64,000 nucleotides of DNA from Acidimicrobiales bacterium (GTDB taxonomy: Bacteria > Actinomycetota > Acidimicrobiia > Acidimicrobiales > Aldehydirespiratoraceae): NCBI GenBank assembly GCA_965207755.1, contig OZ242297.1, positions 2,789,816 through 2,853,815 on the forward strand, read 5' to 3'. Below the pieces are notes generated by a model that was given only the letters and a program-made list of their open reading frames with translations, was not told the DNA's origin and made no database searches. Position 1 is the stretch's first letter, and every line of letters starts with the position of its first letter. The translations under genes were made by a program, and so were the position numbers. This document shows, piece after piece, positions 12,120-59,449 of the stretch.

Positions 12120-12120
12120 G

Positions 12121-17661: not shown

Positions 17662-17736
17662 CCTCCCCGAGTCTGGCGACCCGACGGGCCGCCGGCGCCC
17701 GATCCGTCGCCAGCCCCGGCGCTCGACGGCCGCCGG

Positions 17737-20534: not shown

Positions 20535-20580
20535 CGCCGCCCCGCCCCAACTCCGGCGGAGCCGCTCGACGGTCGAGGAT

Positions 20581-21840: not shown

Positions 21841-21889
21841 GAACTTCAATGACTTAACCACCCCTGAGGTGGTCAACCCATTGAAGTTC
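21841..21889. terminator. 49-nt two-tier hairpin abutting the stop codon of the thioredoxin-like gene
   Basis: The outer 11-bp stem is GAACTTCAATG / CATTGAAGTTC and the inner stem is ACCACC-cctga-GGTGGT. There is no U-tract. The architecture matches the GAATTGGCAGC hairpins elsewhere in the window. Confidence 0.5.
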
Positions 21890-22613
21890 AGAACAGGGCT
21901 GTCGAGAGCCGCTTGCGCCAGGCCGAGGTGCGGGGGTCGTCGGGCCCGAGCACCTCCAGCAAGTCGACGAAACGCCGCCGAGCGTCCTCGTCGGCCTTGA
22001 CGGCGGCCAGCAGCCCGGCCAGCTCGTCCTCGATCTCCGGTGCGCCGCCGGCCGGAGCATCGCCCGAATCCTGAACCCGGGCTAGGGCGACCAAGCGACG
22101 GGTCTCCGGCGTCTCGGGGACCCGTTCCAGCAAGCCGACCGCCTCGGCGGCGCGGCCGTCGTCGACGAGGAGCGCGGCCAGGGCAGTCACCGCGGCCGCG
22201 TTGTCGGCCTCGATCTCGAGGGCAGCCCGCAGGGACGCCTCGTCCCCGGCGGCGATCAGCCCCTCCATCTCGGTCGTCTCCGGCGTGGGCAGCAGTCGCT
22301 GCACGAACTCGCGCACCGCGGCCTCGCCCTGGGCGCCGAGGAAGCCGTCGGCCACCTGGCCGTCCACCATGGCGTATACGGCCGGGATCGACTGGACCCG
22401 GAACGCCTGGGCCACGCCCGGGTTCTTCTCGATGTCCACCTTGGCCAACTCGACCGCGCCCCGGGTCTCGGCCACCACCCTTTCGAGCAGCGGGGTCAGC
22501 TGCCGGCACGGCTCGCACCAGGAGGCCCAGAGGTCCACGATCACCGGGACGGTCCGGGACCGGTCGACCACTTGGGCTTGGAACGTGGCGTCGGTAACGT
22601 CGGCCATCGTCAT
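21888..22613 (-). CDS. thioredoxin-domain protein with a TPR-like C-terminus (YbbN/CnoX-like)
   Basis: The thioredoxin segment is VIVDLWASWCEPCRQLTP...VDIEKNPGVAQAF.VQSIPAV, followed by a helical Ala-rich C-terminal half. Confidence 0.85.
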   Translation of the reverse strand: MTMADVTDATFQAQVVDRSRTVPVIVDLWASWCEPCRQLTPLLERVVAETRGAVELAKVDIEKNPGVAQAFRVQSIPAVYAMVDGQVADGFLGAQGEAAVREFVQRLLPTPETTEMEGLIAAGDEASLRAALEIEADNAAAVTALAALLVDDGRAAEAVGLLERVPETPETRRLVALARVQDSGDAPAGGAPEIEDELAGLLAAVKADEDARRRFVDLLEVLGPDDPRTSAWRKRLSTALF

Positions 22614-30433: not shown

Positions 30434-31675
30434 GTGACTGACGAGCGGGTGCCGGGCCCGCTGGCCGGGGTTCGGGTGATCGAGTCGAGTCTGCTGGGAC
30501 CCGGACACCTCGGAACATTCCTGGCCGACCTTGGCGCGGACGTGATCAAGGTCGAGTCGCCCGCCGGCGACTACATCCGCCAGATGACCTGGCCCATCGT
30601 CGAGGGGGTGTCGCTGCTGCACCTGCACACCCACCGGGGCAAGCGCAGCATCACCCTCGACCTCAAGAACCCGGCCGGCCGGCAGCTCTACATCGACCTG
30701 GCCGCGGGTGCCGACGTCGTGGTGGAGGCCATGCGGCCCGGCACGCTGGCCCGGCTCGGCCTCGGCTACGACGTGCTCAGCGCAGCCAACCGGAGCCTCG
30801 TGTTCGCCACCCTGTCGGGCTACGGGGCCACCGGCCCCTACAAGGACATGCCCAGCCACGGAATTGCCTACGACACCTGGTCGGGGATCGTGCAGCCCGT
30901 CGTCGACGACGAGGGCTTCACCCGCATCCCGCCGGACATGCCCAATGTGGGGATCAACGTGGGGCCGATGCTGGCCGCGCTGGCCGTGCTGGCCGCGGTG
31001 ATCAAGGCCCGCGACACCGGCGAGGGCTGCCAGATCGAGGTGGCCCAGTCCGACGCGTCGGCCTACATGGACTGGTACCGCATCGAGACCGAGCGTGCCT
31101 ACCTGCGGCCCGCCGACGAGGTGACCGGCAACCCGTCCGACGGCTACGAGCGCCGCCCTGCGGGGCTTGCCGGGATGTGGGAGGGCGTGCGCTACCAGGC
31201 CTACGCCACCGCCGACGGCCACGTGCTGTTCATGGCGTCGGAGCAGGCCTTCTGGCGCAACTTCTGCGAGGGCGTGGGCCGCATGGACCTGTACGAGCGC
31301 TGGCCCGGGTCCACCTACGCCGACCACGCCCGGGGCAACACCGAACTGCAGCACGAGCTCAAGGCCATCTTCGCCACCAGGACCTGCGCCGAGTGGCTCG
31401 CGTTCAGCAACGAGGTCAACACCCCCATCGCGCCGTTCAACACGGCCGCCAACATCGGCGACGACCCCCAGTTCCAAGCCCGCATCGGCTTCCTGCCCAC
31501 CGAGTCCATGGGCTGCGAGCAGCTCCCCCTGCCCGTCTTCGTCGACGGCGACAAGCCCCCCACCCCCTCCAAAGCCCCCACAGCAGGCCAGCACACCGAC
31601 GAAGTCATGGAGCAGATCTTGAACTTCAGCGAGGCCGGGATCGCCGCCCTCCGCACCGAAGGCGCCTTCGGCTAA
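30434..31675 (+). CDS. family III CoA-transferase (CaiB/BaiF type)
   Basis: The N-terminal region reads LAGVRVIESSLLGPGHLGTFLADLGADVIKVESPAGD and YDTWSG lies further on. The length and overall sequence fit the family. Confidence 0.9.
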   Translation: MTDERVPGPLAGVRVIESSLLGPGHLGTFLADLGADVIKVESPAGDYIRQMTWPIVEGVSLLHLHTHRGKRSITLDLKNPAGRQLYIDLAAGADVVVEAMRPGTLARLGLGYDVLSAANRSLVFATLSGYGATGPYKDMPSHGIAYDTWSGIVQPVVDDEGFTRIPPDMPNVGINVGPMLAALAVLAAVIKARDTGEGCQIEVAQSDASAYMDWYRIETERAYLRPADEVTGNPSDGYERRPAGLAGMWEGVRYQAYATADGHVLFMASEQAFWRNFCEGVGRMDLYERWPGSTYADHARGNTELQHELKAIFATRTCAEWLAFSNEVNTPIAPFNTAANIGDDPQFQARIGFLPTESMGCEQLPLPVFVDGDKPPTPSKAPTAGQHTDEVMEQILNFSEAGIAALRTEGAFG

Positions 31676-31678
31676 CCC

Positions 31679-31726
31679 GAATTGGCAGCAGAAAGCACGC
31701 ATACCGTGCAAAACGCTGCCAATTCC
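31679..31726. repeat. 48-nt two-tier hairpin repeat (GAATTGGCAGC family) 3 nt after the stop codon
   Basis: The fold is GAATTGGCAGC agaaa GCACG catac CGTGC aaaac GCTGCCAATTC. Confidence 0.8.
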
Positions 31727-31972: not shown

Positions 31973-32968
31973 TCATTGGGGCAGCCGGCCGCGGGAGACC
32001 ACCACCTCGCGGCCGGGGAGCTCGGGCTCGTCGTCGATCATCTGGGCCGGGAACCCGGGAGCCAGCACCGACGTGCCCACGGCCTCCTCCAGGCGCCGGA
32101 CCACGTTCGGAGACCACTCCCGGGACCCGTAACGGGCCGCGGCGTCGTCGAAGATGTCGATCAGCACCGGCGACAACTCCAGCGGGACGCCGGCCCGCTC
32201 GGCCACCGCCGCGAACAGCGACAGGTCCTTCTGCACCAGATCCATGGTGAAGTTGATGTCGCGGCTGCCGTTGAGGATGACCTGGCTCTCGGTCTCATGC
32301 ACGAACGAGTTGCCCGACGAGATGCGGATGGCCTCGTAGGCGGTGTTCAGGTCGATCCCGGCCTGCTTCGACGTGACCAGCGCCTCGCACAGCGACACCA
32401 GGTTGGCGGTGGCCAAATAGTTGGTGACCACCTTGAGGATCGACGCCGAGCCGAGTGGGCCGGCGTGCAGGATGTTGCGGCCCATGGCGGTGAGCACCGG
32501 CAGGGCTCGCTCGAAAGTCGGCCGGTCGCAGCCCGCGAGAATCGAGATGTTGCCGGTGGCGGCCCGGTGGCAGCCACCCGACACGGGACAGTCGACCGCC
32601 GAACCGCCCGCAGCGGCCACCAGCTCCCCCAGACGGCGCACCTCGGCCTCGTCGGTGGTGCTCATCTCGGCCCAGATGACCGGCTCAGCATCGTCGCCGC
32701 GGCCCGCCCGAACAGCCAGTCCGGCCAGGATGCCGTCACCGGCCTCCATCACCGCCGCGCTGGCAGCGGGGCTGGGCAGGCAGGTGATCACCACCTCCGC
32801 GGTGGCGGCCATCGCCGCGGGGCTGTCGGCCCAGCCCGCGCCGGCGGACTCGAGCGCGGCCGCGGCCGAGCGGTCCAGATCCCGCACGACCAGATCGAAG
32901 CCGTTGCGCAGCAGGCTCCCCGCCAGCTTCGACCCCACATTGCCCAGTCCGATGAAGCCCACTCTCAT
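31973..32968 (-). CDS. NAD(P)-dependent dehydrogenase, 3-hydroxyisobutyrate/6-phosphogluconate dehydrogenase family
   Basis: The Rossmann N-terminus is MRVGFIGLGNVGSKLAGSLL. ASILKVVTNYL lies further on. Confidence 0.8.
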   Translation of the reverse strand: MRVGFIGLGNVGSKLAGSLLRNGFDLVVRDLDRSAAAALESAGAGWADSPAAMAATAEVVITCLPSPAASAAVMEAGDGILAGLAVRAGRGDDAEPVIWAEMSTTDEAEVRRLGELVAAAGGSAVDCPVSGGCHRAATGNISILAGCDRPTFERALPVLTAMGRNILHAGPLGSASILKVVTNYLATANLVSLCEALVTSKQAGIDLNTAYEAIRISSGNSFVHETESQVILNGSRDINFTMDLVQKDLSLFAAVAERAGVPLELSPVLIDIFDDAAARYGSREWSPNVVRRLEEAVGTSVLAPGFPAQMIDDEPELPGREVVVSRGRLPQ

Positions 32969-33384: not shown

Positions 33385-36300
33385 CGTGGTCGGTGGGTGT
33401 GGGTCGATGGAGGTTCGAGCGCCTGAGGGCGGTACCGGAGGGCTCGGGGCGCGGTCGGGAGTTCGGGGCGGCTTCGCTGGAGCTGGTGTTGTTGGTGCCG
33501 GCGTTGACGGCTCTGGTGTTGTTCGTGGTGTGGGCGGGCGCCGGGGGGCGTGCGGGTCTGGTGGCTGATCTCGCCGCGGAGGAGGCGGCTGCGGCGGCGG
33601 GGATGGCGTGTGATCCTGCGGACGCGGCCGGGGATGCGCAGTGTCTGGATTCGGTGGCTCGGGAGGTTCTGGGGGCGCGCCCGGGTCTCGGGGAATTGTG
33701 CGTGGGAGGCGCAGCGCCGTCGCGGCCCGGGACGGGTCTCGCCTCCCGGCAGGGCGATGCGGTGTCGGTGGGGGTGCTGTGCCGCGCGGCAGGGGCGGCT
33801 GCGCCGTTGGGGGGTCTCGCCCCGGCGGTGGACTTCTACGGCGAGGGCACCCACGTCGTTGTGCTGCCCGACCGCTCCGTGACCGTCGCCGCCGTCTCCT
33901 CCGGCGTCACCGAGGGCTCAGACGCCGAGTTCGCGGTGACGGTGGCGCCTCCGCCCGCGGGGGCACTCGAGTTGGTGGTGACGTTGAGCGAGGACGGCGG
34001 TTTCGTGGACGGCGGCTACCTGGGCGGCCACCCGCTGGCAGTGCCCCCCTTCCCGGTCACCGAGGCGCCCAAGATCGACTTCGGTGACGGCACCCGGCTG
34101 GACGCCGACGGCGCCGTGGTCGGCGCCGACGACGCCGCCGACAGCGTGGTGTACAGGTTCGCGGTGCCGACCGTCGACGACGGCGCGGTGGAGCCAGACG
34201 GTTGGGTCCAGGCCGCCGTGGCGGTCGCGGCCGGCGACGGCTACCGGCCCGGCGCGCCGGCGCGTGTCGCCGTGCTCGACGACGACGTGCCCACCGTGAC
34301 CGTCGCCGCCGCCGACCACGACCCCGCCACACCCGGCGCGCAGACCGCCGTCACCGAGGGCGACGTCGGCGACCCGGCCGTCTACGCGGTGTTCACCGTC
34401 ACCGCGGACCAGTCGCCCGCCGAGGACACCACCATCCGGCTGTCGGTCACTGAGACCGGCGACCAGATCGCCGCCGCCGCCGAAGGCCCCAAGACAGTCA
34501 CCATCGCCAAGGGCGCCACTGCAGCCACCTACCGCGTCCCCGTCGCCGCCGACGACCGAGTCGAGGCCTCCAGCACCGTGACCGCCGCCATCACCGCGGA
34601 CGCCGCATACGCCGTGGGCGCGCCGTCGTCGGCGCCGGTGACCGTGCTCGACGACGACGTGCCCACCGTGACCGTCGCCGCCGCCGACCACGACCCCGCC
34701 ACACCCGGCGTGCAGACCGCCGTCACCGAGGGCGACGCCACCGAGTTCACCGTGTCGGTCCCCTCCCAGCACGCGCCCCTCACCGACCTCACCGTCAACC
34801 TCACCGTCACCCAGACCGGCCAGTACGTCCCCGCCGCAGGACTCGGCGCCCGCAGCGTCACCATCGACAAGGGCGCCACCACGGCCCGATTCGCCGTCGC
34901 CACCGTCGACGACAGCACCCCGGAGCCCCCGGGCGCGGTCACCGCCACTGTCACCGCCGCCCCAGATTATGCCGTGGGCGTGCCGTCATCGGCGTCGGTG
35001 GACGTGCTCGACGACGACGTGCCCGAAGTCACCGTCACCGCCGGAGCGGACGTCACCGAAGCCGACCCCGGCGACGCGGCGGTGTTCGCGGTGTTCACCG
35101 TCACCGCGGACCACGCCCCGGTCATAGACACCGCGGTGAGCCTGTCGGTCACGGAGACCGGCGACCAGATCGCCGCGGCCGCCGAGGGCGAGCACACGGC
35201 CACCATCGCCAAAGGCGCCACCACCGCCGTGCTGCGCGTCGCCGTCGCCGCCGACGACAGAGTCGAGGCCTCCAGCACCGTGACCTCCGTTATCGAGCCC
35301 GCCTCGGGGTATTCGGTGGGCGTTCCCGCCAGCGCCTCGCTGCAGGTGCTCGACGACGACCTGCCAGAAGTGACCGTCGCCGCCGGCCCCGACGTCTATG
35401 AGGGCTCCCCGGCGAAGTTCACCGTCGCCGCGGACCAGCCGCCCATCGCGGACACCGCAGTCACCCTGACAATCGCTGAGACCGGCAGCGAACTGCGCTC
35501 AGGCCAGACCGGCGCCCACACCGTCACCATACGGAAGGGCACCACCACCGCAACCCATCCGGTGCTGACCCGCGCCGACGACAACCGAGTCGAAGCAGGC
35601 AGCCGGATCACCGCCACCGTCGCAGCCGTCACCGTCGCCTCCGGCTATGGCGTCGGCGTTCCCGGGTCGGCAGAGCTGTCGGTCAAAGACAACGACAGGC
35701 CCGCAGTGTCGGTATCGCCCGGCCCGGCCATCACCGAAGGCCAGACCGCGGAGTTCACCGTGTCGGTGCCCATCCAGCACGCGCCCCTCGCCGACCTCAC
35801 CGTGCAGGTTGACGTCACCCAGACCGGCCGATACGCCGCGTCTGGCCAGACCGGCGCCCGCAGCGCCACCATCGCCAAGGGCGCCACGACAGCCAAACTC
35901 GCCGTCGCCACCATCGACGACACCACCCCGGAACCCGCAGGCGCGATCACCGCTGCAATCACCAGCGTCACCGCCGACGCCGACTACACCGTCACCGCGC
36001 CCTCCACCGCAACCGTCGCCGTCAACGACAACGAACCCACCGTCACCATCACCGCCGACACCCCAGCCGTCACCGAAGGCGACAGCGCCGCGTTCACCGT
36101 CCGCGCCGACCCCGCACCCAGCGCCGACCTCACCGTGCGAGTCAACATCACCCAGACCGGCCAATACGCCGCCGCCTCCGCCCTCGGCGCCCGCAGCGTC
36201 ACCATCACCAAGAACACCACCACCGCCAAACTCGCCGTCGCCACCGTCGACGACACCACCGTCGAACCCGCCGGAACCGTCACCGCCACCATCAGGACCG

Positions 36301-37529
36301 CAGCCGCCACCCCCCACACCGTCAAGAATCCATCCACCGCCACAATCACCGTCAACGACAACGAACCCGCTGTCACCATCACCGCCGACACCCCAGCCGT
36401 CACCGAAGGCGACAGCGCCGCGTTCACCGTCCGCGCCGACCCCGCACCCAGCGCCGACCTCACCGTGCGAGTCAACATCACCCAGACCGGCCAATACGCC
36501 GCCGCCTCCGCCCTCGGCGCCCGCAGCATCACCATCACCAAGAACACCACCACCGCCAAACTCGCCGTCGCCACCGTCGACGACACCACCGTCGAACCCG
36601 CCGGAACCGTCACCGCCACCATCAGGACCGCAGCCGCCACCCCCCACACCGTCAAGAATCCATCCACCGCCACAATCACCGTCAACGACAACGACCAGGT
36701 CGTCACCGTCACCGCCGACGCCACGGCGGTCACCGAAGGAGCCGACGCCGCCTTCACTGTCCGCGCCGACCCCGCACCCGGCAGCGACCTCACCGTCAAC
36801 ATCACCGTCACCCAGACCGGCGAATACGTCGCCGCCGCCAACCTCGGAACCCGCAACATCACCATCGCCAAAGGTGCCGCCACCGCCAGACTAGCCGTCC
36901 CGACCGTCGACGACCGGCGGGACGAACACCCCGGAACCGTCACCGTCACCGTCAACACCGCAGCCGGCTACACCCGAGGCACCCCCGACACCGCCACAAC
37001 CACAGTCAACGACAACGACCCACCGCTGTCCGGTATCATACCGGGCTACAGAGGATGCAACAGCGGCTATCTCCTGTACGAAGGCACCAGCACCAACTTC
37101 TGCGTGTTCAGCATGCCGCGGTACGGGCTGACCGCCGACGTCGACTACACGATCTACTTCGCCCAACTTGACTGGAGCACTCTTCCAATCGGGTGGACGG
37201 TGGACAGCGAGCGTCTCATTCTGCGGAATCTCAACGAGGCCGTGGCGGGCACGAGCTGCGGGTCGGGCGTCGACATCGTCATGTTGGACTGGGTGGACGG
37301 CACCTTCGGCAAGGATGCGGAATTCGATGCCGCCGTCGAGGGAGCCGGCGCCCTGCGGGGAACGGTCAAGGAGGGCAAGAGCATCCATCTGGCATGGGAC
37401 ATCAGAGTATGCAACGACTATGTGAAAGAAGGATGGGAACTGACCGCAATAAGGATCACATTCGAATCCGGAGGTCAAACCCGGACCTACAAAATCCCCA
37501 CGCTGTTGTTGGTGAGAGACAACGACTGA
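33375..37529 (+). CDS. giant surface protein: TadE-like pseudopilin N-terminus, 9 Calx-beta-like repeats and a novel Cys-containing C-terminal domain
   Basis: The N-terminus REFG|AASLELVLLVPALTALVLFVVWA fits a prepilin-type G|xxxxE site and the TadE family. Nine repeats of about 110 aa follow (VTEGD.A.FTV...LTV.V.VTQTG.Y....GARSVTI.KG.TTA.LAV.TVDD...EP.G.VTA). The last 170 aa or so are unrelated and have lower G+C. Confidence 0.8.
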   Translation: MPSSWSVGVGRWRFERLRAVPEGSGRGREFGAASLELVLLVPALTALVLFVVWAGAGGRAGLVADLAAEEAAAAAGMACDPADAAGDAQCLDSVAREVLGARPGLGELCVGGAAPSRPGTGLASRQGDAVSVGVLCRAAGAAAPLGGLAPAVDFYGEGTHVVVLPDRSVTVAAVSSGVTEGSDAEFAVTVAPPPAGALELVVTLSEDGGFVDGGYLGGHPLAVPPFPVTEAPKIDFGDGTRLDADGAVVGADDAADSVVYRFAVPTVDDGAVEPDGWVQAAVAVAAGDGYRPGAPARVAVLDDDVPTVTVAAADHDPATPGAQTAVTEGDVGDPAVYAVFTVTADQSPAEDTTIRLSVTETGDQIAAAAEGPKTVTIAKGATAATYRVPVAADDRVEASSTVTAAITADAAYAVGAPSSAPVTVLDDDVPTVTVAAADHDPATPGVQTAVTEGDATEFTVSVPSQHAPLTDLTVNLTVTQTGQYVPAAGLGARSVTIDKGATTARFAVATVDDSTPEPPGAVTATVTAAPDYAVGVPSSASVDVLDDDVPEVTVTAGADVTEADPGDAAVFAVFTVTADHAPVIDTAVSLSVTETGDQIAAAAEGEHTATIAKGATTAVLRVAVAADDRVEASSTVTSVIEPASGYSVGVPASASLQVLDDDLPEVTVAAGPDVYEGSPAKFTVAADQPPIADTAVTLTIAETGSELRSGQTGAHTVTIRKGTTTATHPVLTRADDNRVEAGSRITATVAAVTVASGYGVGVPGSAELSVKDNDRPAVSVSPGPAITEGQTAEFTVSVPIQHAPLADLTVQVDVTQTGRYAASGQTGARSATIAKGATTAKLAVATIDDTTPEPAGAITAAITSVTADADYTVTAPSTATVAVNDNEPTVTITADTPAVTEGDSAAFTVRADPAPSADLTVRVNITQTGQYAAASALGARSVTITKNTTTAKLAVATVDDTTVEPAGTVTATIRTAAATPHTVKNPSTATITVNDNEPAVTITADTPAVTEGDSAAFTVRADPAPSADLTVRVNITQTGQYAAASALGARSITITKNTTTAKLAVATVDDTTVEPAGTVTATIRTAAATPHTVKNPSTATITVNDNDQVVTVTADATAVTEGADAAFTVRADPAPGSDLTVNITVTQTGEYVAAANLGTRNITIAKGAATARLAVPTVDDRRDEHPGTVTVTVNTAAGYTRGTPDTATTTVNDNDPPLSGIIPGYRGCNSGYLLYEGTSTNFCVFSMPRYGLTADVDYTIYFAQLDWSTLPIGWTVDSERLILRNLNEAVAGTSCGSGVDIVMLDWVDGTFGKDAEFDAAVEGAGALRGTVKEGKSIHLAWDIRVCNDYVKEGWELTAIRITFESGGQTRTYKIPTLLLVRDND
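36021..36680 (+). repeat. near-identical 330-bp tandem duplication inside the giant gene (two Calx-beta-like units)
   Basis: The anchor gtcaacgaca recurs at 36021, 36351 and 36681. By eye, units 36021-36350 and 36351-36680 differ at only a few positions. Confidence 0.9.
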
Positions 37530-44685: not shown

Positions 44686-44960
44686 CGGTCCGCGGGACCA
44701 GCCGACACCGCCAACCGGGCCGCAGGACGCCAACCCGGCCACGACACGCACCGTCACCCCGCGGGACCAGCCGGCACCGCCAACCGGGCCGCAGGACGCC
44801 AACCCGGCCACGAGACGCACCGTCACCCCGCGGGACCAGCCGGCACCGCCAACCGGGCCACACACCGCCATCCCGGCCACGACGACACGCACCGTCACCC
44901 CGCGGGGCCGGCCGGCACCGCCAGACGGGCCGCAGGACGCCGGTACGCTGACCCCGTCCG
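44686..44960. repeat. tandem repeat, about 4 copies of 69-72 bp, in the aldolase-ACAD spacer
   Basis: The anchor cgcgggaccagcc (or ggggccggcc) recurs at 44691, 44760, 44829 and 44901. Confidence 0.9.
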
Positions 44961-44998
44961 CCCGGCCCGCCCGCAGCCGCCGGCACCGAGGAGCCGCC

Positions 44999-47847: not shown

Positions 47848-47896
47848 GAACTGGCAGCAGAATGCGCCCCATACGGGGCACCACGCTGCCAATTCC
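47848..47896. repeat. 49-nt two-tier hairpin repeat (variant of the GAATTGGCAGC family)
   Basis: The outer stem is GAACTGGCAGC...GCTGCCAATTC. The inner stem GCCCC-atac-GGGGC replaces GCACG/CGTGC. Confidence 0.75.
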
Positions 47897-47922: not shown

Positions 47923-48984
47923 ATGACCGGCGAACTGCCTGCCGGCATCGGCGAGCTGATCGGCCGGCCCGTGTACCCGCAGACGGCCGACTTCCCTGCC
48001 GAAATGGGCTACGGCTGGAACACGCTGGCCGCCACCGAGAACGGCAACCCGCTGTACTGGGAACCGGCCGTGGCCGGGATGGTCGCCGGGGACCGCATCC
48101 TGCCCCTCAGCACGCTGTCGCTGTGGATGCGGCCCCACCGCTGGGCGCCCGGCGCCACCACCGAGCAGGTCGCGCTCGGGGTCCACTTCGACCTCAAGGA
48201 GGGTCTGGGGCTCCCCGAGGCCATCATGAGCGACAACACGGTCGTGTTCCACGAGCCCGTGCGCCCCGGCGACGTGATCAGCCACCACCAGGTTCTGCGG
48301 TCGGTGAGCGGGCCCAAGACGACCCGGCTCGGCTCCGGACGGTTCTGGGTGATCGACGTCGAGTACCACAACCAGCACGCGACGCTGGTCGGTGTGGAGT
48401 CCTACACCGGTTTCGGCTACCGCCGGAGCGACCCGGCCCCAGCCGGGCAGCCTCGGGCGCCCCGTCCGACGGAGCCCCCGTCGCCGGACGAGGCTTCCGG
48501 CCCGCGGGCCAAGCCGGACCCCGCCCACGACCAGGTCCGGGTGGGCGACGCCCTGCCCGTGCTCACCCACGACGTGACCGCCACCACCGTCGTGCTCGGC
48601 GCCCTGGCCAGCCGCGACTGGCGGCCGATGCACCACGACTACCGCTTCGCCACCGAGCGAAACGGGGCCCGCGACATCTTCCTGAACACGCCCAACCAGC
48701 TCGCCTGGATCGAGCGGGCCGTCACCGACTGGACCGGGCCCCGCGGCCGGCTGGGGCGGGTCTCGTTCCGCATGCAGGATCCGGTCTTCCCCGGCGACAC
48801 CATGACCATCTCGTCGGTGGTCACGGCGGTGCCCGTCGACGACTCCGGCTGCGGCTGGGCCGAACTCGACCTGGTGCTGCGGGCCGGCGACCGGGTCTGC
48901 ACGACCGGGAGGGCCAAGGTGGCCCTGCCGATGTCGGCGGCCGACAATCCGTGGCAGCGCCGCGGCGAGGACTGGAACCCGTGA
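47923..48984 (+). CDS. double hot-dog-fold (MaoC-like) enoyl-CoA hydratase/dehydratase
   Basis: The N-terminal hot-dog ends FWVIDVEYHN. A linker follows, then the MaoC-type C-terminal half (RPMHHDYRFATERNGARDIFLNTPNQ...FPGDT). Confidence 0.8.
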   Translation: MTGELPAGIGELIGRPVYPQTADFPAEMGYGWNTLAATENGNPLYWEPAVAGMVAGDRILPLSTLSLWMRPHRWAPGATTEQVALGVHFDLKEGLGLPEAIMSDNTVVFHEPVRPGDVISHHQVLRSVSGPKTTRLGSGRFWVIDVEYHNQHATLVGVESYTGFGYRRSDPAPAGQPRAPRPTEPPSPDEASGPRAKPDPAHDQVRVGDALPVLTHDVTATTVVLGALASRDWRPMHHDYRFATERNGARDIFLNTPNQLAWIERAVTDWTGPRGRLGRVSFRMQDPVFPGDTMTISSVVTAVPVDDSGCGWAELDLVLRAGDRVCTTGRAKVALPMSAADNPWQRRGEDWNP

Positions 48985-50167: not shown

Positions 50168-50505
50168 GCGGCCCCGGTTGCGCCCTCGAGTGCGGCTATC
50201 CGCTCGCCGTGGTCCGCCATCGAGGTGAGCAGACGACCATGCTCCTCCAGAGTGGCCTCGATCCTGGCAAGACGACGGCCATGCTCCTCCAGAGTGGCCT
50301 CGATCCTGGTCAATCGACGGCCATGCTCCTCTTGGACGGTCTCAATCTTGGTCAATCGCTCAAGCACCTTGACCAAGATCGCCTCGTTGCGATCGAGGCG
50401 CGCGCCGAGGGATCGAATGTCCGACTTGATTACGGACAGGGAAAAGCCGAGCAGCCCCAAGATGCCCGCACCCAATACTCCGATGATCGCTTCTGCCACG
50501 GTCAT
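50164..50505 (-). CDS. small single-TM coiled-coil protein with 3 copies of a 14-aa (42-bp) repeat
   Basis: The TM segment is MTVAEAIIGVLGAGILGLLGF. The repeats are TKIETVQEEHGRRL, TRIEATLEEHGRRL and ARIEATLEEHGRLL (nt 50237-50362). GGAGGA precedes ATG 50505. G+C is lower than in the flanking sequence. Confidence 0.5.
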   Translation of the reverse strand: MTVAEAIIGVLGAGILGLLGFSLSVIKSDIRSLGARLDRNEAILVKVLERLTKIETVQEEHGRRLTRIEATLEEHGRRLARIEATLEEHGRLLTSMADHGERIAALEGATGAA

Positions 50506-51689: not shown

Positions 51690-53474
51690 ATGCGACTCGC
51701 TTGTCTATTAGTGGCGGCCGCGCTGGCGGCTACGGCGTGCTCGGATGAGCCGCCCGCGGGCGACGGCCTAACCGACGAGAGCGTTCAGGCCGAGCCGGCC
51801 GCCACCGACGACGGCGCAAGCGCCGGGGCGCCCGACCAGTCGACGCCTCCGCCGGTCCCGGGGACGTTCACCGCGGTGGCGGCCGGGTTCTGGCACACCT
51901 GCGCGATCCGCTCCGACGGCCGGATCGAATGCTGGGGCGTCAACCGGGACGGGCTGCTGGACGCGCCCGTGGGTCGGTTCAAGGCGATCTCTGCCGGGCC
52001 CGGCCACAACTGCGCCATCCGCACCGACGGCGGCATCGAGTGCTGGGGCGAGGAGTTCCCAGGAATGGCCGACGCGCCCGTCGGCGAATTCGTCGCGGTG
52101 TCCGCGGGCGCCGGATACACGTGCGCGCTGCGTGACGACGGAGACGTCGACTGCTGGGGCGGTTCCGACACTCAACTCTTGACCCCGCCCGGTGGGCACT
52201 TCACCGCGGTGGCCGCGGGGCACCGTCACGCGTGCGTGCTGCGCGAGGGTGGAACGGTGCTCTGCTGGGGCGCCAACGAAGAAGGCCAGGCCGAAGGGCG
52301 CACCCAACGCTTCAGTGACATCGCCGCCGGGGCCGACCACACCTGCGGGGTGAAACTCGACGGCACCGTCGAATGCTGGGGATCCGACTACCTGGCCAAG
52401 TCCGACGCGCCCGGCGGGACCTTCACGACGCTCGCGGCCGGGGTAGACCACACGTGCGCGGTGAGCACCGGCGGCACAGCCGAGTGCTGGGGATCGGACG
52501 CCTTCGGTGCGACTCCGGCACCCGACGGCCAATTCCAGTCGGTCGCGGCCGCGGCCGACCACAGTTGCGGGCTGCGCACAGACGGCACCATCCAGTGCTG
52601 GGGCAGGCGCTTCATCGCGGGCGCCGAACCTCCCGGCGAGCAGCTTGCATCCCTGGTTGCCGGCGGCAACCACACCTGCGGGCTGCGCCCCGACGGCACC
52701 GTCGAATGCTGGGGCACAGACCTCGTGGGTCGGATGGAACCGCCCGGTGGACGCTTCGATTCGATGGCCACCGGGAACTACTTCGCCTGCGGGCTGCGCC
52801 CCGACGGCACCGTCGAATGCTGGGGATTCGACCGCTTCGGCGTGCTCGACGTCCCCGACGGAGCGTTCCATGCCGTGACGGCCGGCGTCGGCCACGCCTG
52901 CGCCCTGCGAGGCAACGGCACCGTCGAATGCTGGGGTTCCAACTCGCACGGACAGGCCGACACCCCCGCAGACACCTTCGCCGCCATCTCGGCAGGGAGC
53001 TCGCACACCTGCGGCATCCTCCTCGACACCGGTTGGGCCGAGTGCTGGGGAAACCCGTACGCGGGGAGGCTGGATGCCCCAGCGGGGGCCTTCATCGCCG
53101 TCGCAGCCGGCGGCCAGGAGCAGCCTCCTCCAGAGCGCCAACTCCGCGGCCCTCAGGAGTCCGTCGCAGCCGGTGACAGCCACACCTGCGGGCTGCGCCC
53201 CGACGGCGCCGCCGAGTGCTGGGGATCCAACTCGCACGGGCAGAGCGAGGCCCCCGCAGGCGCCTTCACGGCTGTCTCGACCGGCGTGCATTCCTGCGGC
53301 TTGCGCCCCGACGGCGCCGTCGAGTGCTGGGGAACCGACGAAGCGCCCTCCGCAGGGGAGTTCGCCGCCGTGGAGGTCGGCCAGGGCTACACCTGCGGGC
53401 TGCGTCCCGACGGCGCCGCCGAGTGCTGGGGAACGCTGCGGGCGCCGCCCGAGGGAGTGACCTACACCGGCTGA
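51690..53474 (+). CDS. RCC1-repeat (beta-propeller) lipoprotein
   Basis: The lipobox is LAATAC. About 11 repeats of the form HTCAIRSDGRIECWG follow. Confidence 0.85.
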   Translation: MRLACLLVAAALAATACSDEPPAGDGLTDESVQAEPAATDDGASAGAPDQSTPPPVPGTFTAVAAGFWHTCAIRSDGRIECWGVNRDGLLDAPVGRFKAISAGPGHNCAIRTDGGIECWGEEFPGMADAPVGEFVAVSAGAGYTCALRDDGDVDCWGGSDTQLLTPPGGHFTAVAAGHRHACVLREGGTVLCWGANEEGQAEGRTQRFSDIAAGADHTCGVKLDGTVECWGSDYLAKSDAPGGTFTTLAAGVDHTCAVSTGGTAECWGSDAFGATPAPDGQFQSVAAAADHSCGLRTDGTIQCWGRRFIAGAEPPGEQLASLVAGGNHTCGLRPDGTVECWGTDLVGRMEPPGGRFDSMATGNYFACGLRPDGTVECWGFDRFGVLDVPDGAFHAVTAGVGHACALRGNGTVECWGSNSHGQADTPADTFAAISAGSSHTCGILLDTGWAECWGNPYAGRLDAPAGAFIAVAAGGQEQPPPERQLRGPQESVAAGDSHTCGLRPDGAAECWGSNSHGQSEAPAGAFTAVSTGVHSCGLRPDGAVECWGTDEAPSAGEFAAVEVGQGYTCGLRPDGAAECWGTLRAPPEGVTYTG

Positions 53475-53480: not shown

Positions 53481-53600
53481 GAATTGGCAGCACAATGCAC
53501 GCCACCCGTGCATCACGCTGCCAATTCCCTGGTGGCGCCAACCGGCGCTCTCGAATTGGCAGCACAATGCACGCCATCCGTGCATCACGCTGCCAATTCC
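53481..53600. repeat. two copies of the 48-nt GAATTGGCAGC hairpin, 72 bp apart
   Basis: The copies lie at 53481-53528 and 53553-53600. Each folds as GAATTGGCAGC acaa TGCACG cca[c/t]c CGTGCA tcac GCTGCCAATTC. Confidence 0.85.
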
Positions 53601-53644
53601 CTTTGGCCGGGGCGTGGGGGGCGGGGGGCGGGGCATACTGAGGC

Positions 53645-55900
53645 GTGTCCTGGTGGCGGAGGCTCGATCCGGGCCGGATTGCGATCCTGGCGGTGATGGT
53701 GCTGGGAGTGGCCGCGTTCCTGACCCGGGGACAGTGGCTCGGAACCGTCGAGACCGCCGTGGACGTGGCCGTGGACGCCGTCGACGTCGCCGTGGACGGC
53801 GAGATCGATCACGACGACCTGGTGACCGGGGGCGAGGTGGTCGCTCCCCCGGTCGTGGACGTGGAGGATCCCGAGGACTTCGACGTCGAGACCGAGCGGC
53901 TGTACCGGATCGTTCCCGGAAGCGGATCCCGGGCCAGCTACCACATCGAGGAACGCCTCGGCGGGCTGTCGCGCACCACGGTGGGCACCACCTCGGTCAT
54001 GGCCGGCGAGATCGCGGTGAACCTCGTCGATCTCGCCGCCAGCCGGGTCGGCGAGATCGTGGTCAACGTGGAGATGTTCCAGTCCGACTCCGCCCTGCGC
54101 GACAAGCGCATCCGCCACGACTACCTGGAGTCGAGCCACTGGCCCTTCGTGCGGTTCCGGCCCGCTCAGATCGAGGGCCTCGACGCCGGCTTCGCCGACG
54201 GCCTGTCCTACGAGATCGCCGTCACCGGCGAACTCACCGTCAAGGAGACCACCCGCACCGAGACCTTCGCCGGCGCCGTCACCGTCACCCCCGACGCCCT
54301 CGTCGCGACGATGTCGGCCACCGTGCTGACCAGCCACTACGACGTCGGTCCCATCAACATCGCCCGCCTCGTCCACACCTCCGACGAGGTGATCCTGACC
54401 TTCGAGCTGGTCGCCGACCGGGTCGAGTTCGGCTCGGCGCCGGCCGGCGACCTGCGCCGCGAGATCCCGGCGCCCGAGTTCGCCGGCGGCCGGTTCGCGG
54501 CCACAGTGCAGCCCATCCTCGAGACACGCTGCGTGAGCTGCCACACGTCGAACGGCCCGGCCTGGAGCACCCTCGCCCTCGACACCGCCGGCGACGCGGC
54601 CGCCATCGCCGGCGACATCGCCTTCGTCACCGGGATCGGCTTCATGCCCCCATGGCTGCCCTCGGACCTGAGCCCGCAGTACATGCACGACTGGTCGCTC
54701 AGCGACGCCGAGAAGGCCGCCATCAAGCAGTGGGCCGACGCCGGCGGCGGTCTCGACGTGCGGCCCGACACGCCGCTGGTGGCCCGCGTCCAGGCCATCC
54801 TGCCGGTGGAGGAGGACCAGAAGATCGGGCCCCGCGACGGCCTGTACACCGGCTACTCACGCCCCGACGGCCGGCCGGTCAAGAAGGACGACTACCGCTG
54901 CCAGGTCCACGAGGTGGCCGATCCCGAGGGCGACGGCACCTGGGTCAAGGGCTTCGAGTTCCGGCCCGACCAGGTGGAGGTGGTGCACCACGCCATCGTC
55001 TACCGGGTGCCGGCCGCGGCGGCTTCCGAGATCGCGGCCAGGATCGCAGCCGAGGACCGCATCGAGGCGGCCGAGGGCTTCTCCGACGAGCCGGGCTGGA
55101 CGTGCTTCGGCCTGTCGGGGCTCAACTCCCAGGGCGTGTACTCGATCCAGGGCTGGGCGCCGGGCCAGTCGCCGACCATCTACCCCGAGGGTTACGGCAT
55201 ATACCTGTGGCCCGGCGACATGATCGTCAACCAGATCCACTACCACTACGACCACGACACCCCGCCCGACGGCTCCTGGATCATCCTCGACACCGCCACC
55301 GGCGCCGAGGTCGCCGCGGGCATCACTCACATCACCGGCGACAGCTACCTCACCCCGGCCGAGGTCCCCTGCACACCCGAGGAGGCTGCAATCGCGGCCG
55401 AGCGGACCGCCACTATCGACGGCTACGTCAACCTGTGCCTGCGTTCCAACGTGCTCGACGAGATCGCCGAGAAGTACGACGCGTTCGCCCGCTTCATCCC
55501 CGACGCCCTCCTGGCGGTATGCAGAGGCACCGTCGACGACTACGACGACCTCGACGGCAGCGTCGGCTACAGCTCCTGCGACCTGCCGGCCCGGGACACC
55601 GGCACCATCCACACCGTGCTGGGCCACATGCACGAGTTCGGCGCGGCCTACCGGATGACGCTGCATCCCGACACGCCGGAGGAGCGGATCCTGCTCGACA
55701 TCCCGGTGTGGGACTTCGAATGGCAACTCAACTACGAGCCGGTGGAGCAGATCCGCATCGAGCGGGGCGACACGGTGCGCTTCGAGTGCTGGTGGGACCG
55801 CACGCTGCAGTTCATGCCCGAGCCCCGCTACATCACCTGGAACGAGGGCACCGTCGACGAGATGTGCTTCTCCAGCATCTCGGTGATCCCCGACGTCTAA
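53645..55900 (+). CDS. membrane-anchored fusion of a YceI-like domain, a CxxCH (PSCyt1-like) module and a PHM/DBH-like copper monooxygenase
   Basis: The N-terminus has a TM segment. FAATVQPILETRCVSCH carries the CxxCH motif. The PHM-type ligand pattern is VVHHAIVY, IHYHYDH, GHMHEFG and DEMCF. Confidence 0.7.
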   Translation: MSWWRRLDPGRIAILAVMVLGVAAFLTRGQWLGTVETAVDVAVDAVDVAVDGEIDHDDLVTGGEVVAPPVVDVEDPEDFDVETERLYRIVPGSGSRASYHIEERLGGLSRTTVGTTSVMAGEIAVNLVDLAASRVGEIVVNVEMFQSDSALRDKRIRHDYLESSHWPFVRFRPAQIEGLDAGFADGLSYEIAVTGELTVKETTRTETFAGAVTVTPDALVATMSATVLTSHYDVGPINIARLVHTSDEVILTFELVADRVEFGSAPAGDLRREIPAPEFAGGRFAATVQPILETRCVSCHTSNGPAWSTLALDTAGDAAAIAGDIAFVTGIGFMPPWLPSDLSPQYMHDWSLSDAEKAAIKQWADAGGGLDVRPDTPLVARVQAILPVEEDQKIGPRDGLYTGYSRPDGRPVKKDDYRCQVHEVADPEGDGTWVKGFEFRPDQVEVVHHAIVYRVPAAAASEIAARIAAEDRIEAAEGFSDEPGWTCFGLSGLNSQGVYSIQGWAPGQSPTIYPEGYGIYLWPGDMIVNQIHYHYDHDTPPDGSWIILDTATGAEVAAGITHITGDSYLTPAEVPCTPEEAAIAAERTATIDGYVNLCLRSNVLDEIAEKYDAFARFIPDALLAVCRGTVDDYDDLDGSVGYSSCDLPARDTGTIHTVLGHMHEFGAAYRMTLHPDTPEERILLDIPVWDFEWQLNYEPVEQIRIERGDTVRFECWWDRTLQFMPEPRYITWNEGTVDEMCFSSISVIPDV

Positions 55901-56890: not shown

Positions 56891-59449
56891 GTGACGCAGC
56901 CGAGACCACTGTCCTCGGCTCGCAAGGTTGCAGGTGCGGTTTGGGTTGCCGTTGTTGTCGCACTCCTTGCGGGCGGCTGCGCTCAAGACGATCACAACCC
57001 AGACGCGACCCGGGCCAGGGCGACAGGCGCCGAGGGCGCCGCGTCGCCGTCCTCCACGAGCACTTCAAGACCCGTCGTGGACATGCCGAGCCGGACGGCC
57101 GCCGAGGAGACAGCCACCGGGGAGCGCGAACCCGGGTCGGCGACTGCGGTGGCGTCCCCCACTCCCTTCGAGGCCGACGACCTCTCGGAGACCGATGACG
57201 GCACTCAGATTGATGCCCCCATAGACGGACTCGACGATGAGGCTCCCCCGGAGTCTCCGGAGCCCACGAGCCCGGAGATCGCCGACCCGTTCCCATGGCT
57301 CATCCAGCGCCGCCTCGGACCCGATCCGACCGGCTGTGGATTGTCGTTCGTCGTGCCCGGGGAGAGCGTCGGACTGTCGGCCGGAGGGTTCGCTCCCCAT
57401 TCGGAGGTGAGCTTCACCGCCCGTGGGGCATCGCTCACGGGGACCGAGTTGCCCCCGCCGACGATTCCGCCGACGACAGCCGACGGCGAGGGCCTCATCG
57501 ACGTGGTGTGGACCGTCCCGGAGGCGCCGCCGGCCGGGGAGGATCCGGAGCCCAGGGCCTACATCGCCGAAGCCGTCGGCGTCGGGCGGGGCGGCGAGGA
57601 GTACGTGGCGTACATGGTGCAGCCGCTGGTGGCCTATCCGGGCACGACGATCTGCGCGCTGGCCGACGCGGCCGCCACCACCTTGGGGCAGCCGGTCCGC
57701 ATCCCGGTGCTGGACAACGACGTCGCCCCCGAGGGCGGCTGGCTGGATCCGGCGTCGGTGAGTACCCGGCCGGTCGCAGGAGGCGAACTGGCCGTAGACC
57801 CCACCGACGGGTCGCTGACGTTCACGCCCGACCCGGGCTTCGCGGGAACGGCCACGGCGACGTACGCGGTCTACGACAACTGGCAGATCGGGATGGAGGG
57901 CGAGGTCACCGTGACCGTAGACGCCGGATGCACGATCGAGATCCCCCCGGACACCAGGGAGATCCATGGCACCGAGGGCGACGACGTGATCTGCGCCGAC
58001 GATCTGGGCGACACATCCGGTTGGGATCGGAACCGGTTCCACGTCATCTACGCCCTAGGCGGCGACGACATCATCCTCGGAAGCAACGGAGTGGACTGGA
58101 TCTACACCGGCGAGGGAACCGACGTCGTGTACGGACGGGGCAGTGACGATCGGATAATCGTGTACGGCGAGGACAGGGTCTACGGCGGCTCCGGTTTCGA
58201 CACCATCTACTCGGTGGACCTCTTGATGGAGGTCTTCGACGACGATGACGGCTACCTCATCGAGTTGTCCTCGACGACCCTCTTCGAGCAACGCGCGCCC
58301 ATTGCAGCCGACGACCACCGGCATCTGAACCCGTTCGCGACGCAGGTCATCGAAGTGCTCGAGAACGACTACAGCCCCATGGACAGTCTCGATTGGGAGA
58401 CCATGTCCATCACCAAGCCTCCGACGCTCGGCTCAGCGCGGGTCGTCGACTCGCCGTGGTTCGGCAACGCCATCGAGTACGCACCCATGGGTGCCTCGGG
58501 CACCGACGAACTCTCCTATTCGATCTGCGACATCCTCTCGCGATGCACTACCGCCGAGGTTCACATCACCCTCGGCACGGACCACTGCACCATCATGGGC
58601 ACCGCGGGGCCCGACACGCTCACGGGCACGCCGGGCGACGACATCATCTGCGGGCTCGGAGGAGACGACCGGATCGACGGCCTGGGCGGCAACGACGTGA
58701 TCATCGCCGGCCCGGGCGACGACACGGTCGTGGGAGGTGCGGGCGATGACCGGATCTGGGGCGGTGACGGCGACGACACGCTCGACGGCGGCTCGGAGGA
58801 CGACATGCTCTGGGGCGGACCCGGAGACGACACCCTCAACGGGGGACCCGGCCACGACACGCTCCTTGGAGGCGACGGCGGTGACAGCCCCAACGGCGGC
58901 GAAGGAAGCGACCGTCTGTGGGGCGGTGACGGCGACGACACGCTCAATGGCGGCTCGGGCGACGACATGCTCTGGGGCGGACCCGGCTCGGACGATCTCA
59001 ACGGTGGGCCCGGCCACGACACGCTATGGGGTGATGCCAGTACAGGCGTGGGCGACGACACCATCGACGGCGGCGACGGCAACGACATAATCCTCGGTGA
59101 TTTCGGCCGCGACACGCTCATGGGCGGAGCCGGCGACGACCTGATCTGGGGAGGCTCGGGCGACGACACGATTCGCGGGGGCTCGGGCGACGACGAGATC
59201 CTGGACAACCGCGGCGACAACCGGCTGGAGGGCGGGGTCGGAGACGATCGCATACACGGCGGCAACGGCGACGACACGCTCGACGGCGGCGACGGGGACG
59301 ACTACCTCACCGGCGACGACGGCGACGACACGCTCGACGGCGGCGAGGGATCCGACTATCTCACCGGCGACGACGGCACCGACACCTGTCTCGGCGGCGA
59401 GATCACCGCTCTGTGCGAGTCCTTCAGCACCGATTCGACCGAGCCCTGA
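56891..59449 (+). CDS. RTX-like calcium-binding repeat lipoprotein with cadherin/VCBS-like modules
   Basis: The lipobox is LLAGGC. The motifs VLDNDVAPEG and VLENDYSPMD are present. The C-terminal 280 aa or so consist of more than 25 GGxGxDxhx nonapeptides. Confidence 0.85.
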   Translation: MTQPRPLSSARKVAGAVWVAVVVALLAGGCAQDDHNPDATRARATGAEGAASPSSTSTSRPVVDMPSRTAAEETATGEREPGSATAVASPTPFEADDLSETDDGTQIDAPIDGLDDEAPPESPEPTSPEIADPFPWLIQRRLGPDPTGCGLSFVVPGESVGLSAGGFAPHSEVSFTARGASLTGTELPPPTIPPTTADGEGLIDVVWTVPEAPPAGEDPEPRAYIAEAVGVGRGGEEYVAYMVQPLVAYPGTTICALADAAATTLGQPVRIPVLDNDVAPEGGWLDPASVSTRPVAGGELAVDPTDGSLTFTPDPGFAGTATATYAVYDNWQIGMEGEVTVTVDAGCTIEIPPDTREIHGTEGDDVICADDLGDTSGWDRNRFHVIYALGGDDIILGSNGVDWIYTGEGTDVVYGRGSDDRIIVYGEDRVYGGSGFDTIYSVDLLMEVFDDDDGYLIELSSTTLFEQRAPIAADDHRHLNPFATQVIEVLENDYSPMDSLDWETMSITKPPTLGSARVVDSPWFGNAIEYAPMGASGTDELSYSICDILSRCTTAEVHITLGTDHCTIMGTAGPDTLTGTPGDDIICGLGGDDRIDGLGGNDVIIAGPGDDTVVGGAGDDRIWGGDGDDTLDGGSEDDMLWGGPGDDTLNGGPGHDTLLGGDGGDSPNGGEGSDRLWGGDGDDTLNGGSGDDMLWGGPGSDDLNGGPGHDTLWGDASTGVGDDTIDGGDGNDIILGDFGRDTLMGGAGDDLIWGGSGDDTIRGGSGDDEILDNRGDNRLEGGVGDDRIHGGNGDDTLDGGDGDDYLTGDDGDDTLDGGEGSDYLTGDDGTDTCLGGEITALCESFSTDSTEP

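Follow-up and report, generated by a model that had tools for sequence, protein, structure and literature searches.

The question raised by this locus is what the two-tier hairpins are that stand beside the genes of a 64,000-nt stretch of an Acidimicrobiales genome (contig OZ242297.1 of assembly GCA_965207755.1, positions 2,789,816 to 2,853,815 of the forward strand; the whole stretch is called the window here). An earlier note, made from the letters alone, had described them as one dispersed family of five copies and had offered three functions: a factor-dependent or I-shaped terminator, a stabilizer of mRNA, or an element resembling the repetitive extragenic palindromic (REP) sequences and recognized by a protein. 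The analysis described below supports the last of these and leaves the terminator and the stabilizer a secondary place. The window probably contains four copies of a REP-like, non-coding palindromic DNA element, family E, and one copy of a sister family, in a system that resembles the REPtrons but has a partner other than an HUH enzyme.

Hairpins of the window and family E

Hairpins of the form GAAyTGGCAGC-N25/26-GCTGCCAATTC were assigned to family E. They are 47-48 nt long and consist of an 11-bp foot (GAAyTGGCAGC), an internal loop of about 5x5 nt, an inner stem of 5-7 bp and an apical loop of 4-5 nt. The hairpins of the window are as follows (L-numbers, such as L010, L026 or L101, are labels of loci fetched from other genomes).

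31679..31725, + strand: single E copy; foot GAATTGGCAGC/GCTGCCAATTC, inner sequence AGAAAGCACGCATACCGTGCAAAAC (type A); 69.8 bits; -24.3 kcal/mol
47848..47895, + strand: single E copy; foot GAACTGGCAGC/GCTGCCAATTC with a C.A mismatch at position 4, inner stem GCCCC/GGGGC; 64.0 bits
53481..53527, + strand: first E copy of a doublet; 66.5 bits; 6 nt past the TGA of the RCC1-repeat protein gene (51690-53474)
53528..53552, + strand: spacer of the doublet, 25 nt, CCTGGTGGCGCCAACCGGCGCTCTC; within the 23-25-nt class of spacers between neighbouring E copies and homologous to the spacer of L102
53553..53599, + strand: second E copy of the doublet; 66.8 bits; 45 nt before the start of the YceI-domain protein gene (53645-55900)
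21841..21889, + strand: sister-family hairpin; foot GAACTTCAATG/CATTGAAGTTC, GAAnT/AnTTC termini and E-like geometry; -22.9 kcal/mol
17668..17716, + strand: decayed or diverged E-like hairpin, GAGTCTGGCGAC...GTCGCCAGC; -25.7 kcal/mol, z-score -2.3

All five hairpins of the earlier note were found where it had placed them, and the predicted folds agreed with the common two-tier architecture it had described; for the four E copies the folding energies were between -23.9 and -27.3 kcal/mol, with z-scores of -4.6 to -8.0. The outer stem said to be shared by four copies was borne out as well. The pattern TGGCAGC-N18-34-GCTGCCA occurs four times in the window, against an expectation of 0.04, and the covariance model R1, built from 150 distinct E copies of other genomes and none from the window, detected exactly the copies at 31679, 47848, 53481 and 53553 (64-70 bits, all on the + strand) and no others. 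The GAAyT...ArTTC termini are also real: a detector for GAAnT...AnTTC hairpins of 45-52 nt returned precisely five sites in the 64 kb, the four E copies and the hairpin at 21841.

The assignment of all five to a single family stood for the four E copies but not for the hairpin at 21841, which escaped R1 at E <= 10. It belongs to a second small family with the foot GAACTTCAATG, whose other member, at position 5350 of L026, has an identical 5' foot. The inner stems of the two members are compensated (ACCACC/GGTGGT at 21841 vs GCCACA/TGTGGC in L026), and at both sites the preceding T puts a TGA stop codon over the foot. In L026 a truncated paralogue of the nuclease gene described below abuts the hairpin. 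When metagenomes were scanned with the foot of this family two hits were obtained, one an unrelated low-GC palindrome and the other a high-GC hairpin whose preceding T again gives TGA. The E-like hairpin at 17668-17716 corresponds to an intact E copy at the orthologous position of L077; in its foot two adjacent pairs have been swapped by four substitutions, with the pairing retained.

A CoA-transferase gene (30434-31675) ends with TAA 3 nt ahead of the copy at 31679, on whose other side a dehydrogenase gene (31973-32968, minus strand) runs in the convergent direction. For the copy at 47848 the distances are 229 nt to the preceding gene and 27 nt to the ATG of the following one, which codes for a MaoC-like dehydratase (47923-48984). 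The hairpin at 21841 overlaps by 2 nt the TGA stop codon of a minus-strand thioredoxin-TPR gene (21888-22613). With this overlap counted, the statement that three hairpins start 3-7 nt after a stop codon was accepted as true for 31679 (3 nt), 53481 (6 nt) and 21841. The genes near the hairpins are ordinary metabolic ones, coding for CoA-transferases, the dehydrogenase, the MaoC dehydratase, and the RCC1-repeat, YceI-domain and thioredoxin-TPR proteins. The absence of a U-tract, also noticed before, can be read straight from the sequence: none follows the copies of the window, and the downstream stretches cggctaga, ccggagtg and cctttggc are without a T-run. In an Rfam search of the window at gathering score only two tRNAs were found, and permissive E-values added chance hairpin matches to miRNA models. 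The RCC1 gene just upstream of the E doublet contains 111-nt repeats, and 10 nt past the doublet, just before the start of the YceI-domain gene, there is a G-run tract with a quadruplex-type motif (53609-53633, + strand, GGGGCGTGGGGGGCGGGGGGCGGGG).

A scan with the exact foot, using one genome per species, found E at no fewer than 109 loci, i.e. at least 109, all of them in metagenome-assembled genomes of Acidimicrobiia. The record names ('Candidatus Aldehydirespirator', SB06xx, APA bins) suggest that the E-bearing genomes are sponge-associated. With up to 4 foot mismatches allowed, at least 211 E copies were present in the matches listed (the 109 loci and the window), many of the 109 loci being orthologues from about 20 related genomes. 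The window has a G+C content of about 70%, and several E loci are 86-94% identical to it. No E copy was found in the viral contigs searched, nor any description of the family in the literature searched.

The inner 25-26 nt are highly variable and fall into at least three types: A, AGAATGCACGCATACCGTGCACAAC; B, AGAATGCCCCCTATAGGGGC...; and C, CCAGGACGCCCAAACGGGCACCCACC. Despite this variation the small hairpin of the inner region is retained. The compensatory changes noticed earlier in the inner stems of the window copies were confirmed on the 150 distinct copies: pair 21-28 was CG in 72 and GC in 65, pair 19-30 was AU in 46 and GC in 29, all 500 shuffles fell short of the covariation score observed, and slid controls collapsed. 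When families with different feet were compared, foot positions 6-11 were found to covary (seven pairs changed on both sides, a score reached by 0 of 500 shuffles); G1, A2, A3, T5 and their partners were invariant, which leaves a constant GAA.T/A.TTC base. At position 4 the folded form often contains a C.A or T.G mismatch. In about a quarter of the E copies GAACT stands opposite AATTC (C.A), in some others GAATT is combined with AGTTC (T.G), and in doublets the mismatched position often occurs in one copy. Pairing between the flanks, as a third tier of the hairpin, was no more frequent than in a permuted control and was discarded.

Arrays, genomic context and orientation

Among the matches listed there were 71 single copies, 50 doublets and 11 larger arrays, the longest with 5 copies. 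Neighbouring copies were separated by 24 nt in 64 of 81 cases, by 23 nt in 6 and by 25 nt in 9, which corresponds to a period of 71-72 nt, and this spacing was constant even between copies differing in inner type or orientation. The copies of a doublet are direct, not inverted. By prediction a doublet can fold into a single 119-nt hairpin as well (-69 kcal/mol), the foot being palindromic.

The spacers are locus-specific, unstructured and unrelated to the inner sequences, and they are identical within arrays. On the forward strand of E they are C-rich, independently of the direction of transcription. Treated as degenerate inner cassettes or as hairpins they scored no better than shuffles, and the explanation of the spacer as merely a duplicated flank held in a minority of recent-looking arrays only. 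The clearest recent events are tandem duplications of the 24-nt 5' flank together with E. At L101:2888 perfect duplicates of a 24-nt flank lie one on each side of E and are followed by a truncated second E, and the same relation of flank to spacer was seen in L010 and L017. Transposition of a 71-nt unit carrying its 24-nt flank was rejected, as the flanks were not common to any non-orthologous loci. Since the flank never travels with E, dispersal appears to move the 47-48-nt element alone, and local amplification to use the 71-72-nt unit.

Between orthologous sites the copy number was 1, 2, 3 or 4; the flanks remained aligned and the inner types were swapped. The orthologues of the 53481 doublet are a single copy in L035 and L109 and a doublet in L102, with inner type A in the window and L035 and type C in L109 and L102. 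At the site of the single 31679 copy, which is of type A, L060 has a doublet of type B. At another site, which is one orthologous position in L008, L011, L017, L057, L063 and L082, direct copies of the 18-nt motif GACCGTCATCGCGGCATC occur on both sides of an E doublet at a distance of 6-22 nt. E copies were also seen at breakpoints of rearrangement and of presence and absence (L058 compared with L101, L071 and L087; L036); in L058 the region upstream of the nuclease gene differs from that of the other three.

Gene neighbours were taken from a rough gene call based on the G+C content of third codon positions. Where both neighbouring genes were within 120 nt, 20 sites lay between convergent genes, 33 between tandem ones and none between divergent ones. 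The distance from the array edge to the adjacent stop codon had a median of 16 nt and was 10 nt or less in 42 of 115 cases. Many E copies lie 16-45 nt before the next start codon, inside likely operons. No target-site duplications of 4-8 nt were detected at 65 single copies, and the identity between their 24-nt flanks equalled that of the permuted control.

Since the foot is a perfect palindrome, the orientation of a copy is defined by its unpaired parts, and the strand on which these are A/C-rich was called forward. The unpaired positions are A/C-rich on one DNA strand regardless of which strand is transcribed. Relative to the adjacent gene, the orientation was sense in 28 cases and antisense in 31. 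It correlates with local GC skew: in 72 of 110 arrays the strand that is forward for E is also the C-rich one (Mann-Whitney p = 0.0018). The complete chromosome OZ220743.1 has positive or near-zero skew between 1.15 and 1.99 Mb, and every clearly oriented array there is reverse; in the negative skew from 2.76 to 3.66 Mb all arrays but one are forward. A mostly reverse array at 3.76 Mb nevertheless lies in negative skew. OZ220747.1 behaves in the same way, its array orientation tracking the skew through two switches. Judged from GC skew in 8-kb pieces, the orientation bias thus appears to be linked to the replication strand, which would point to a process at the level of DNA.

The candidate partner gene and other features

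A search for a REP-associated tyrosine transposase (RAYT) or a related IS200-like gene, suggested by the earlier note as the possible partner, was negative: tblastn with E. coli RayT gave no match below E = 5 in 0.93 Mb of E-enriched loci, which represent a few per cent of each genome. A different gene emerged from the arrays themselves. Genes enclosed between close arrays were all housekeeping genes except one, which has an atypical codon composition, codes for a 319-aa protein, and in four syntenic genomes has E arrays tightly on both sides. It is usually present once per locus and is not among the genes of the window. The N-terminal approximately 175 residues of its product match AbiEi models (E = 1e-28) and Pfam AbiEi_4. 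The C-terminus weakly matches REase_MTES_1575, at E <= 0.01 in 11 of 17 homologues (best E = 3.3e-05); for the first member found, this match is below Pfam's cut-off. A profile search of the sequences of solved structures gave no match, and comparison of folds was needed instead. In the AlphaFold model (mean predicted local distance difference test score 86.8) the first approximately 200 residues match the AbiEi antitoxin 6y8q and Rv2827c, and for the last approximately 100 the matches are I-Bth0305I, a homing endonuclease (catalytic domain, TM-score 0.77), Vsr and a protein of the DUF559 type. Residues D, E, S, H, D and R of the C-terminal domain are invariant in 30 homologues. As modelled, this domain would be a Vsr-like PD-(D/E)xK nuclease and a candidate for an active one. 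No AbiEii toxin gene adjoins the gene, and no AbiEi/DUF559-type protein was linked to dispersed hairpins or repeats in the literature searched.

To test the association of gene and hairpins, ten further homologues with 40-71% identity (L113-L122) were fetched with up to 10 kb on each side. Their contexts represent two conserved syntenic positions and several others. Nine of the ten genes have GAAnT-foot hairpins of the two-tier kind, 47-50 nt long, beside them, 44-187 nt upstream, -9 to +98 nt downstream, or both. Near the gene (within 300 nt upstream or 450 nt downstream) 19 hairpins were counted in 7.5 kb, compared with 9 in 138 kb elsewhere in the same loci, which is an approximately 39-fold difference in density. 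L120, L121 and L122 have no such hairpins in 21 kb other than the ones beside the gene. The feet of the gene-flanking hairpins are lineage-specific:

L116, L117 and L118: GAAyTGGCAGC, in arrays with a period of mostly 71-72 nt
L119: GAAyTGGCAC
L113: GAACTGGAAGG
L115: GAAsTGCAGGG, four copies in 9 kb
L120: GAACTCTGACC
L121: GAAGTGCCGTC, the upstream and downstream copies mutually inverted
L122: GAAGTGACGCG

None of these loci had gone into model R1, which also gave most of its hits beside the gene; the remaining ones were arrays approximately 0.84-1.05 kb upstream in L116 and L118, beyond a neighbouring gene, and one copy 2.8 kb downstream in L117. A 318-aa gene upstream in L115 was considered as a paralogue of the nuclease gene and ruled out. 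L117 contains another tandem palindromic repeat at 16895-17046 (GGTCTGTGCGC...GCACACAGACC, period approximately 70 nt, intergenic); genomes with E may carry additional families of hairpin arrays.

Several other features of the window were recorded. Its first part (1-6061) has a G+C content of approximately 0.60, compared with approximately 0.71 elsewhere, and ends at a tRNA gene (5987-6061, minus strand); it may be an integrated island. Large genes contain in-frame tandem repeats at 20503-21102 (75 nt, six times), at 44690-44968 (69 nt, four times), at 58640-59388 (27-nt period, GGxGxD-like sequence), at 12097-12300 (39 nt, acidic) and at 34255-37021 (modules of 330-360 nt in the gene for a 1384-aa protein). 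A 400-nt intergenic gap holds a perfect, AT-rich inverted repeat of 11 bp (ATCTTGGTCAA-N13-TTGACCAAGAT, 50345-50379), which looks like an operator and has no relation to E.

Interpretation and comparison with known systems

REP doublets with fixed spacing, REPINs, REPtrons and RAYT genes have been described (PMC3116915, PMC3733652), and the definition of a REP includes a GTAG (or CGTC) tetranucleotide at one end of the palindrome (PMC3733652). As REPs should be, E is a short imperfect palindrome in at least 211 copies, almost all intergenic; the tag is lacking, as E ends in GAAyT...ArTTC and its flanks are weakly C/S-rich. The likeness to the REP/REPIN-RAYT REPtrons of Proteobacteria extends to the preference of hundreds of extragenic copies for gene 3' ends, the lack of target-site duplications, the doublets and tandem clusters with fixed spacing and poorly conserved spacer, vertical inheritance with a lineage-specific repeat sequence, and a gene, usually one per locus, that is bracketed by the repeats even where these have not spread. 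Unlike REPs, E is longer (47-48 nt), two-tiered and has a GAAnT...AnTTC end; unlike in REPINs, the copies of its doublets are direct rather than inverted, the predicted 119-nt hairpin notwithstanding; and unlike in REPtrons, the bracketed gene codes for an AbiEi-like winged-helix protein with a Vsr-like PD-(D/E)xK domain, not for an HUH tyrosine transposase, and the hosts are Actinobacteriota.

Other known systems share some traits with E. The BIME arrays of E. coli and the NIME arrays of Neisseria (mosaic elements dispersed between genes) are likewise regular intergenic palindromic units with linkers of defined length, but BIMEs have conserved linker motifs and alternating REPs, whereas the 24-nt linker of E is locus-specific and its copies are direct. 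Subterminal imperfect one-strand hairpins in direct orientation also flank the enzyme gene of IS200/IS605 elements, which similarly make no target-site duplication and show a strand bias relative to replication. The amplified unit of E, which reaches a fixed 24 nt 5' of the hairpin, recalls IS608, whose cleavage site is reportedly offset 5' of the left-end hairpin. What sets E apart from IS200/IS605 is that neither a Y1 transposase nor a conserved target tetranucleotide was found for it and that the 24-nt flank stays behind. The N-terminal half of the putative partner resembles AbiEi antitoxins in sequence and fold, and AbiEi binds inverted repeats upstream of its own gene (PMC7319586); the partner differs from these antitoxins in the lack of an adjoining AbiEii toxin gene and in its fused nuclease domain, and E sites differ from AbiEi sites in that they form hairpins, occur also downstream of the gene and are dispersed genome-wide. 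The C-terminal fold matches that of Vsr-fold (EDxHD) homing endonucleases such as I-Bth0305I and of DUF559 proteins (target-normalised TM-score 0.77, probability 1.0). Unlike homing endonuclease genes, the gene lies outside introns and inteins, no homing-type target was identified, and a dispersed hairpin family is associated with it. The mycobacterial interspersed repetitive units (MIRUs) are tandem units of 50-100 bp at many intergenic loci with copy numbers varying between strains. E resembles them as an actinobacterial tandem intergenic unit of variable copy number; MIRUs are oriented with the flanking genes and contain small coupled open reading frames, whereas E is a hairpin whose orientation is independent of genes.

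E is read as REP-like because it is extragenic, lies at gene 3' ends, makes no target-site duplication, forms doublets at a fixed distance, is polymorphic and has a bracketed gene. It is called REP-like rather than REP because it has no GTAG/CGTC tag, no RAYT was found and the bracketed gene encodes a different enzyme. We suppose that the conserved AbiEi/Vsr-like protein recognizes the element at its base, as a hairpin or a cruciform; since AbiEi proteins bind inverted repeats in their own promoters (PMC7319586), recognition of the invariant GAA.T/A.TTC base is plausible. The gene and its hairpins with lineage-specific feet would then represent the REPtron arrangement with a different enzyme, and the nuclease, acting on DNA in a replication-strand-dependent manner, would create, convert and maintain the copies. 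Where the hairpins are transcribed, they would give stable stem-loops at 3' ends or between cistrons, and as a secondary effect these could protect mRNAs or terminate them.

The most substantial alternative, which we nevertheless consider unlikely, is that the hairpins are host RNA elements, i.e. factor-dependent or I-shaped terminators or 3' stabilizers that block exonucleases, kept by selection on mRNA structure, with repetitiveness incidental. E. coli REPs stabilize upstream mRNA, and actinobacterial terminators are often without U-tracts. The terminator and stabilizer options remain because the hairpins are strong (-24 to -27 kcal/mol) and lie just past stop codons (median 16 nt) and never in divergent promoter regions; the decayed copy at 17668 has even kept its pairing by compensatory changes. 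A role at mRNA 3' ends or in mRNA stability is plausible from this position and stability but cannot account for the orientation data. Such a role is not the organizing principle, because the orientation is gene-independent (28 sense vs 31 antisense), the A/C-rich strand is fixed and many copies, 16-45 nt before the next start, are in likely operons. The A/C-rich loops and the C-rich spacer follow the orientation of the element instead of the sense of the transcript, and this orientation tracks GC skew and chromosome half. Nor would a terminator need an identical 11-bp foot over hundreds of loci in many species, the U-tract that should follow an intrinsic terminator is absent although the hairpins are present, and the clustering around one nuclease gene would stay unaccounted for.

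E would be a classical REP or REPIN if its mobilization were due to a RAYT, an HUH Y1 transposase from the IS200/IS605 superfamily, with a gene elsewhere in the genome. The population features fit this: extragenic position at 3' ends, no target-site duplication, doublets of fixed spacing and tandem clusters are all REP traits (PMC3116915). The replication-strand bias would also suit single-strand transposition. For IS608 such a bias is said to be established. Against it stand the conserved GAAnT end in place of a GTAG/CGTC tag, the direct copies of the doublets, the negative tblastn search with E. coli RayT in 0.93 Mb and the fact that the gene bracketed by hairpins in 8 lineages codes for a different enzyme, and we regard this explanation as improbable. 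It is quite improbable, too, that the copies are double-stranded operators of an AbiEi-like transcription factor with a large regulon, each foot being a pair of 11-bp half-sites, the hairpin irrelevant and the nuclease-like domain inactive. AbiEi antitoxins autoregulate through inverted repeats in their promoters (PMC7319586), copies of the hairpin do lie 44-145 nt upstream of the protein's own gene, and the half-sites of arrays are phased at about 36 bp. But the inner stem, which is not contacted as a half-site, covaries; foot positions 6-11 vary freely between lineages and are always compensated; the sites lie past stop codons and are excluded from divergent promoter regions; their copy number is polymorphic with tandem amplification; and 30 homologues share, without variation, the candidate catalytic residues of the Vsr-like domain. 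Very little credence can be given to another known class, although each has its resemblance. The 11-bp terminal inverted repeat is reminiscent of the ends of miniature inverted-repeat transposable elements of DDE transposons, which is at variance with the absence of target-site duplications. The fixed-length spacers look like those of orphan CRISPR-like mini-arrays, but here they are identical within arrays, the recent ones come from the adjacent flank, and the arrays are dispersed in hundreds with 1-5 units each. A two-tier hairpin past stop codons resembles a folded integron attC site; the consensus contains no GTTRRRY/RYYYAAC core, and instead of cassettes the neighbours are housekeeping genes in synteny. 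The contexts examined showed neither cas nor intI genes, and Rfam has no matching family.

The REP-like reading with a nuclease partner has difficulties of its own. The link between protein and hairpin is positional, binding, cleavage and the mechanism of spread being inferred, and because AbiEi proteins bind operators, a more modest explanation stays alive in which the upstream hairpin is an autoregulatory operator and the downstream one a terminator, both unrelated to dispersal. In L114 the gene has no hairpin beside it; L036 lacks the gene and keeps an E doublet, whose 24-nt spacer stands in its place. The reading offers no mechanism for the constant spacing of 24 nt or for the exchange of inner types at one site. 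The role of the replication strand was deduced from the skew of 8-kb pieces rather than from mapped origins, the RAYT search covered a few per cent of any genome so that a RAYT could exist elsewhere, and copy counts and context statistics are not independent because many of the loci are orthologous.

These points notwithstanding, we tentatively put forward, as a possibility that falls a little short of an even chance, that GAAnT-foot hairpins and the AbiEi/Vsr-like nuclease constitute a second, independently evolved REPtron-type system. In it a vertically inherited, site-specific PD-(D/E)xK nuclease, not an HUH transposase, would generate, convert and tandemly amplify its cognate hairpin in a replication-strand-specific manner with a 24-nt ruler. 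Actinobacteriota would thereby gain their first system of this kind, expanded to hundreds of copies in the symbionts of sponges. REP elements rank with the most common repeats of bacteria, and to our knowledge the RAYT family is the sole dedicated class of REP enzymes, whole groups of REPs, such as the CGTC-tagged ones, being without a known partner.

In practical terms, E marks hundreds of intergenic sites in genomes of sponge symbionts, and its copy-number variation between strains is useful for typing; it occurs at rearrangement breakpoints and can break or confuse short-read assemblies and predictors of CRISPR arrays or terminators. If the proposal is true, the nuclease might offer a compact, programmable enzyme that recognizes hairpins. 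It would also give a function to a widespread, uncharacterized type of actinobacterial protein (AbiEi_4 with a DUF559-like nuclease domain), and it would mean that REP-type systems arose more than once.

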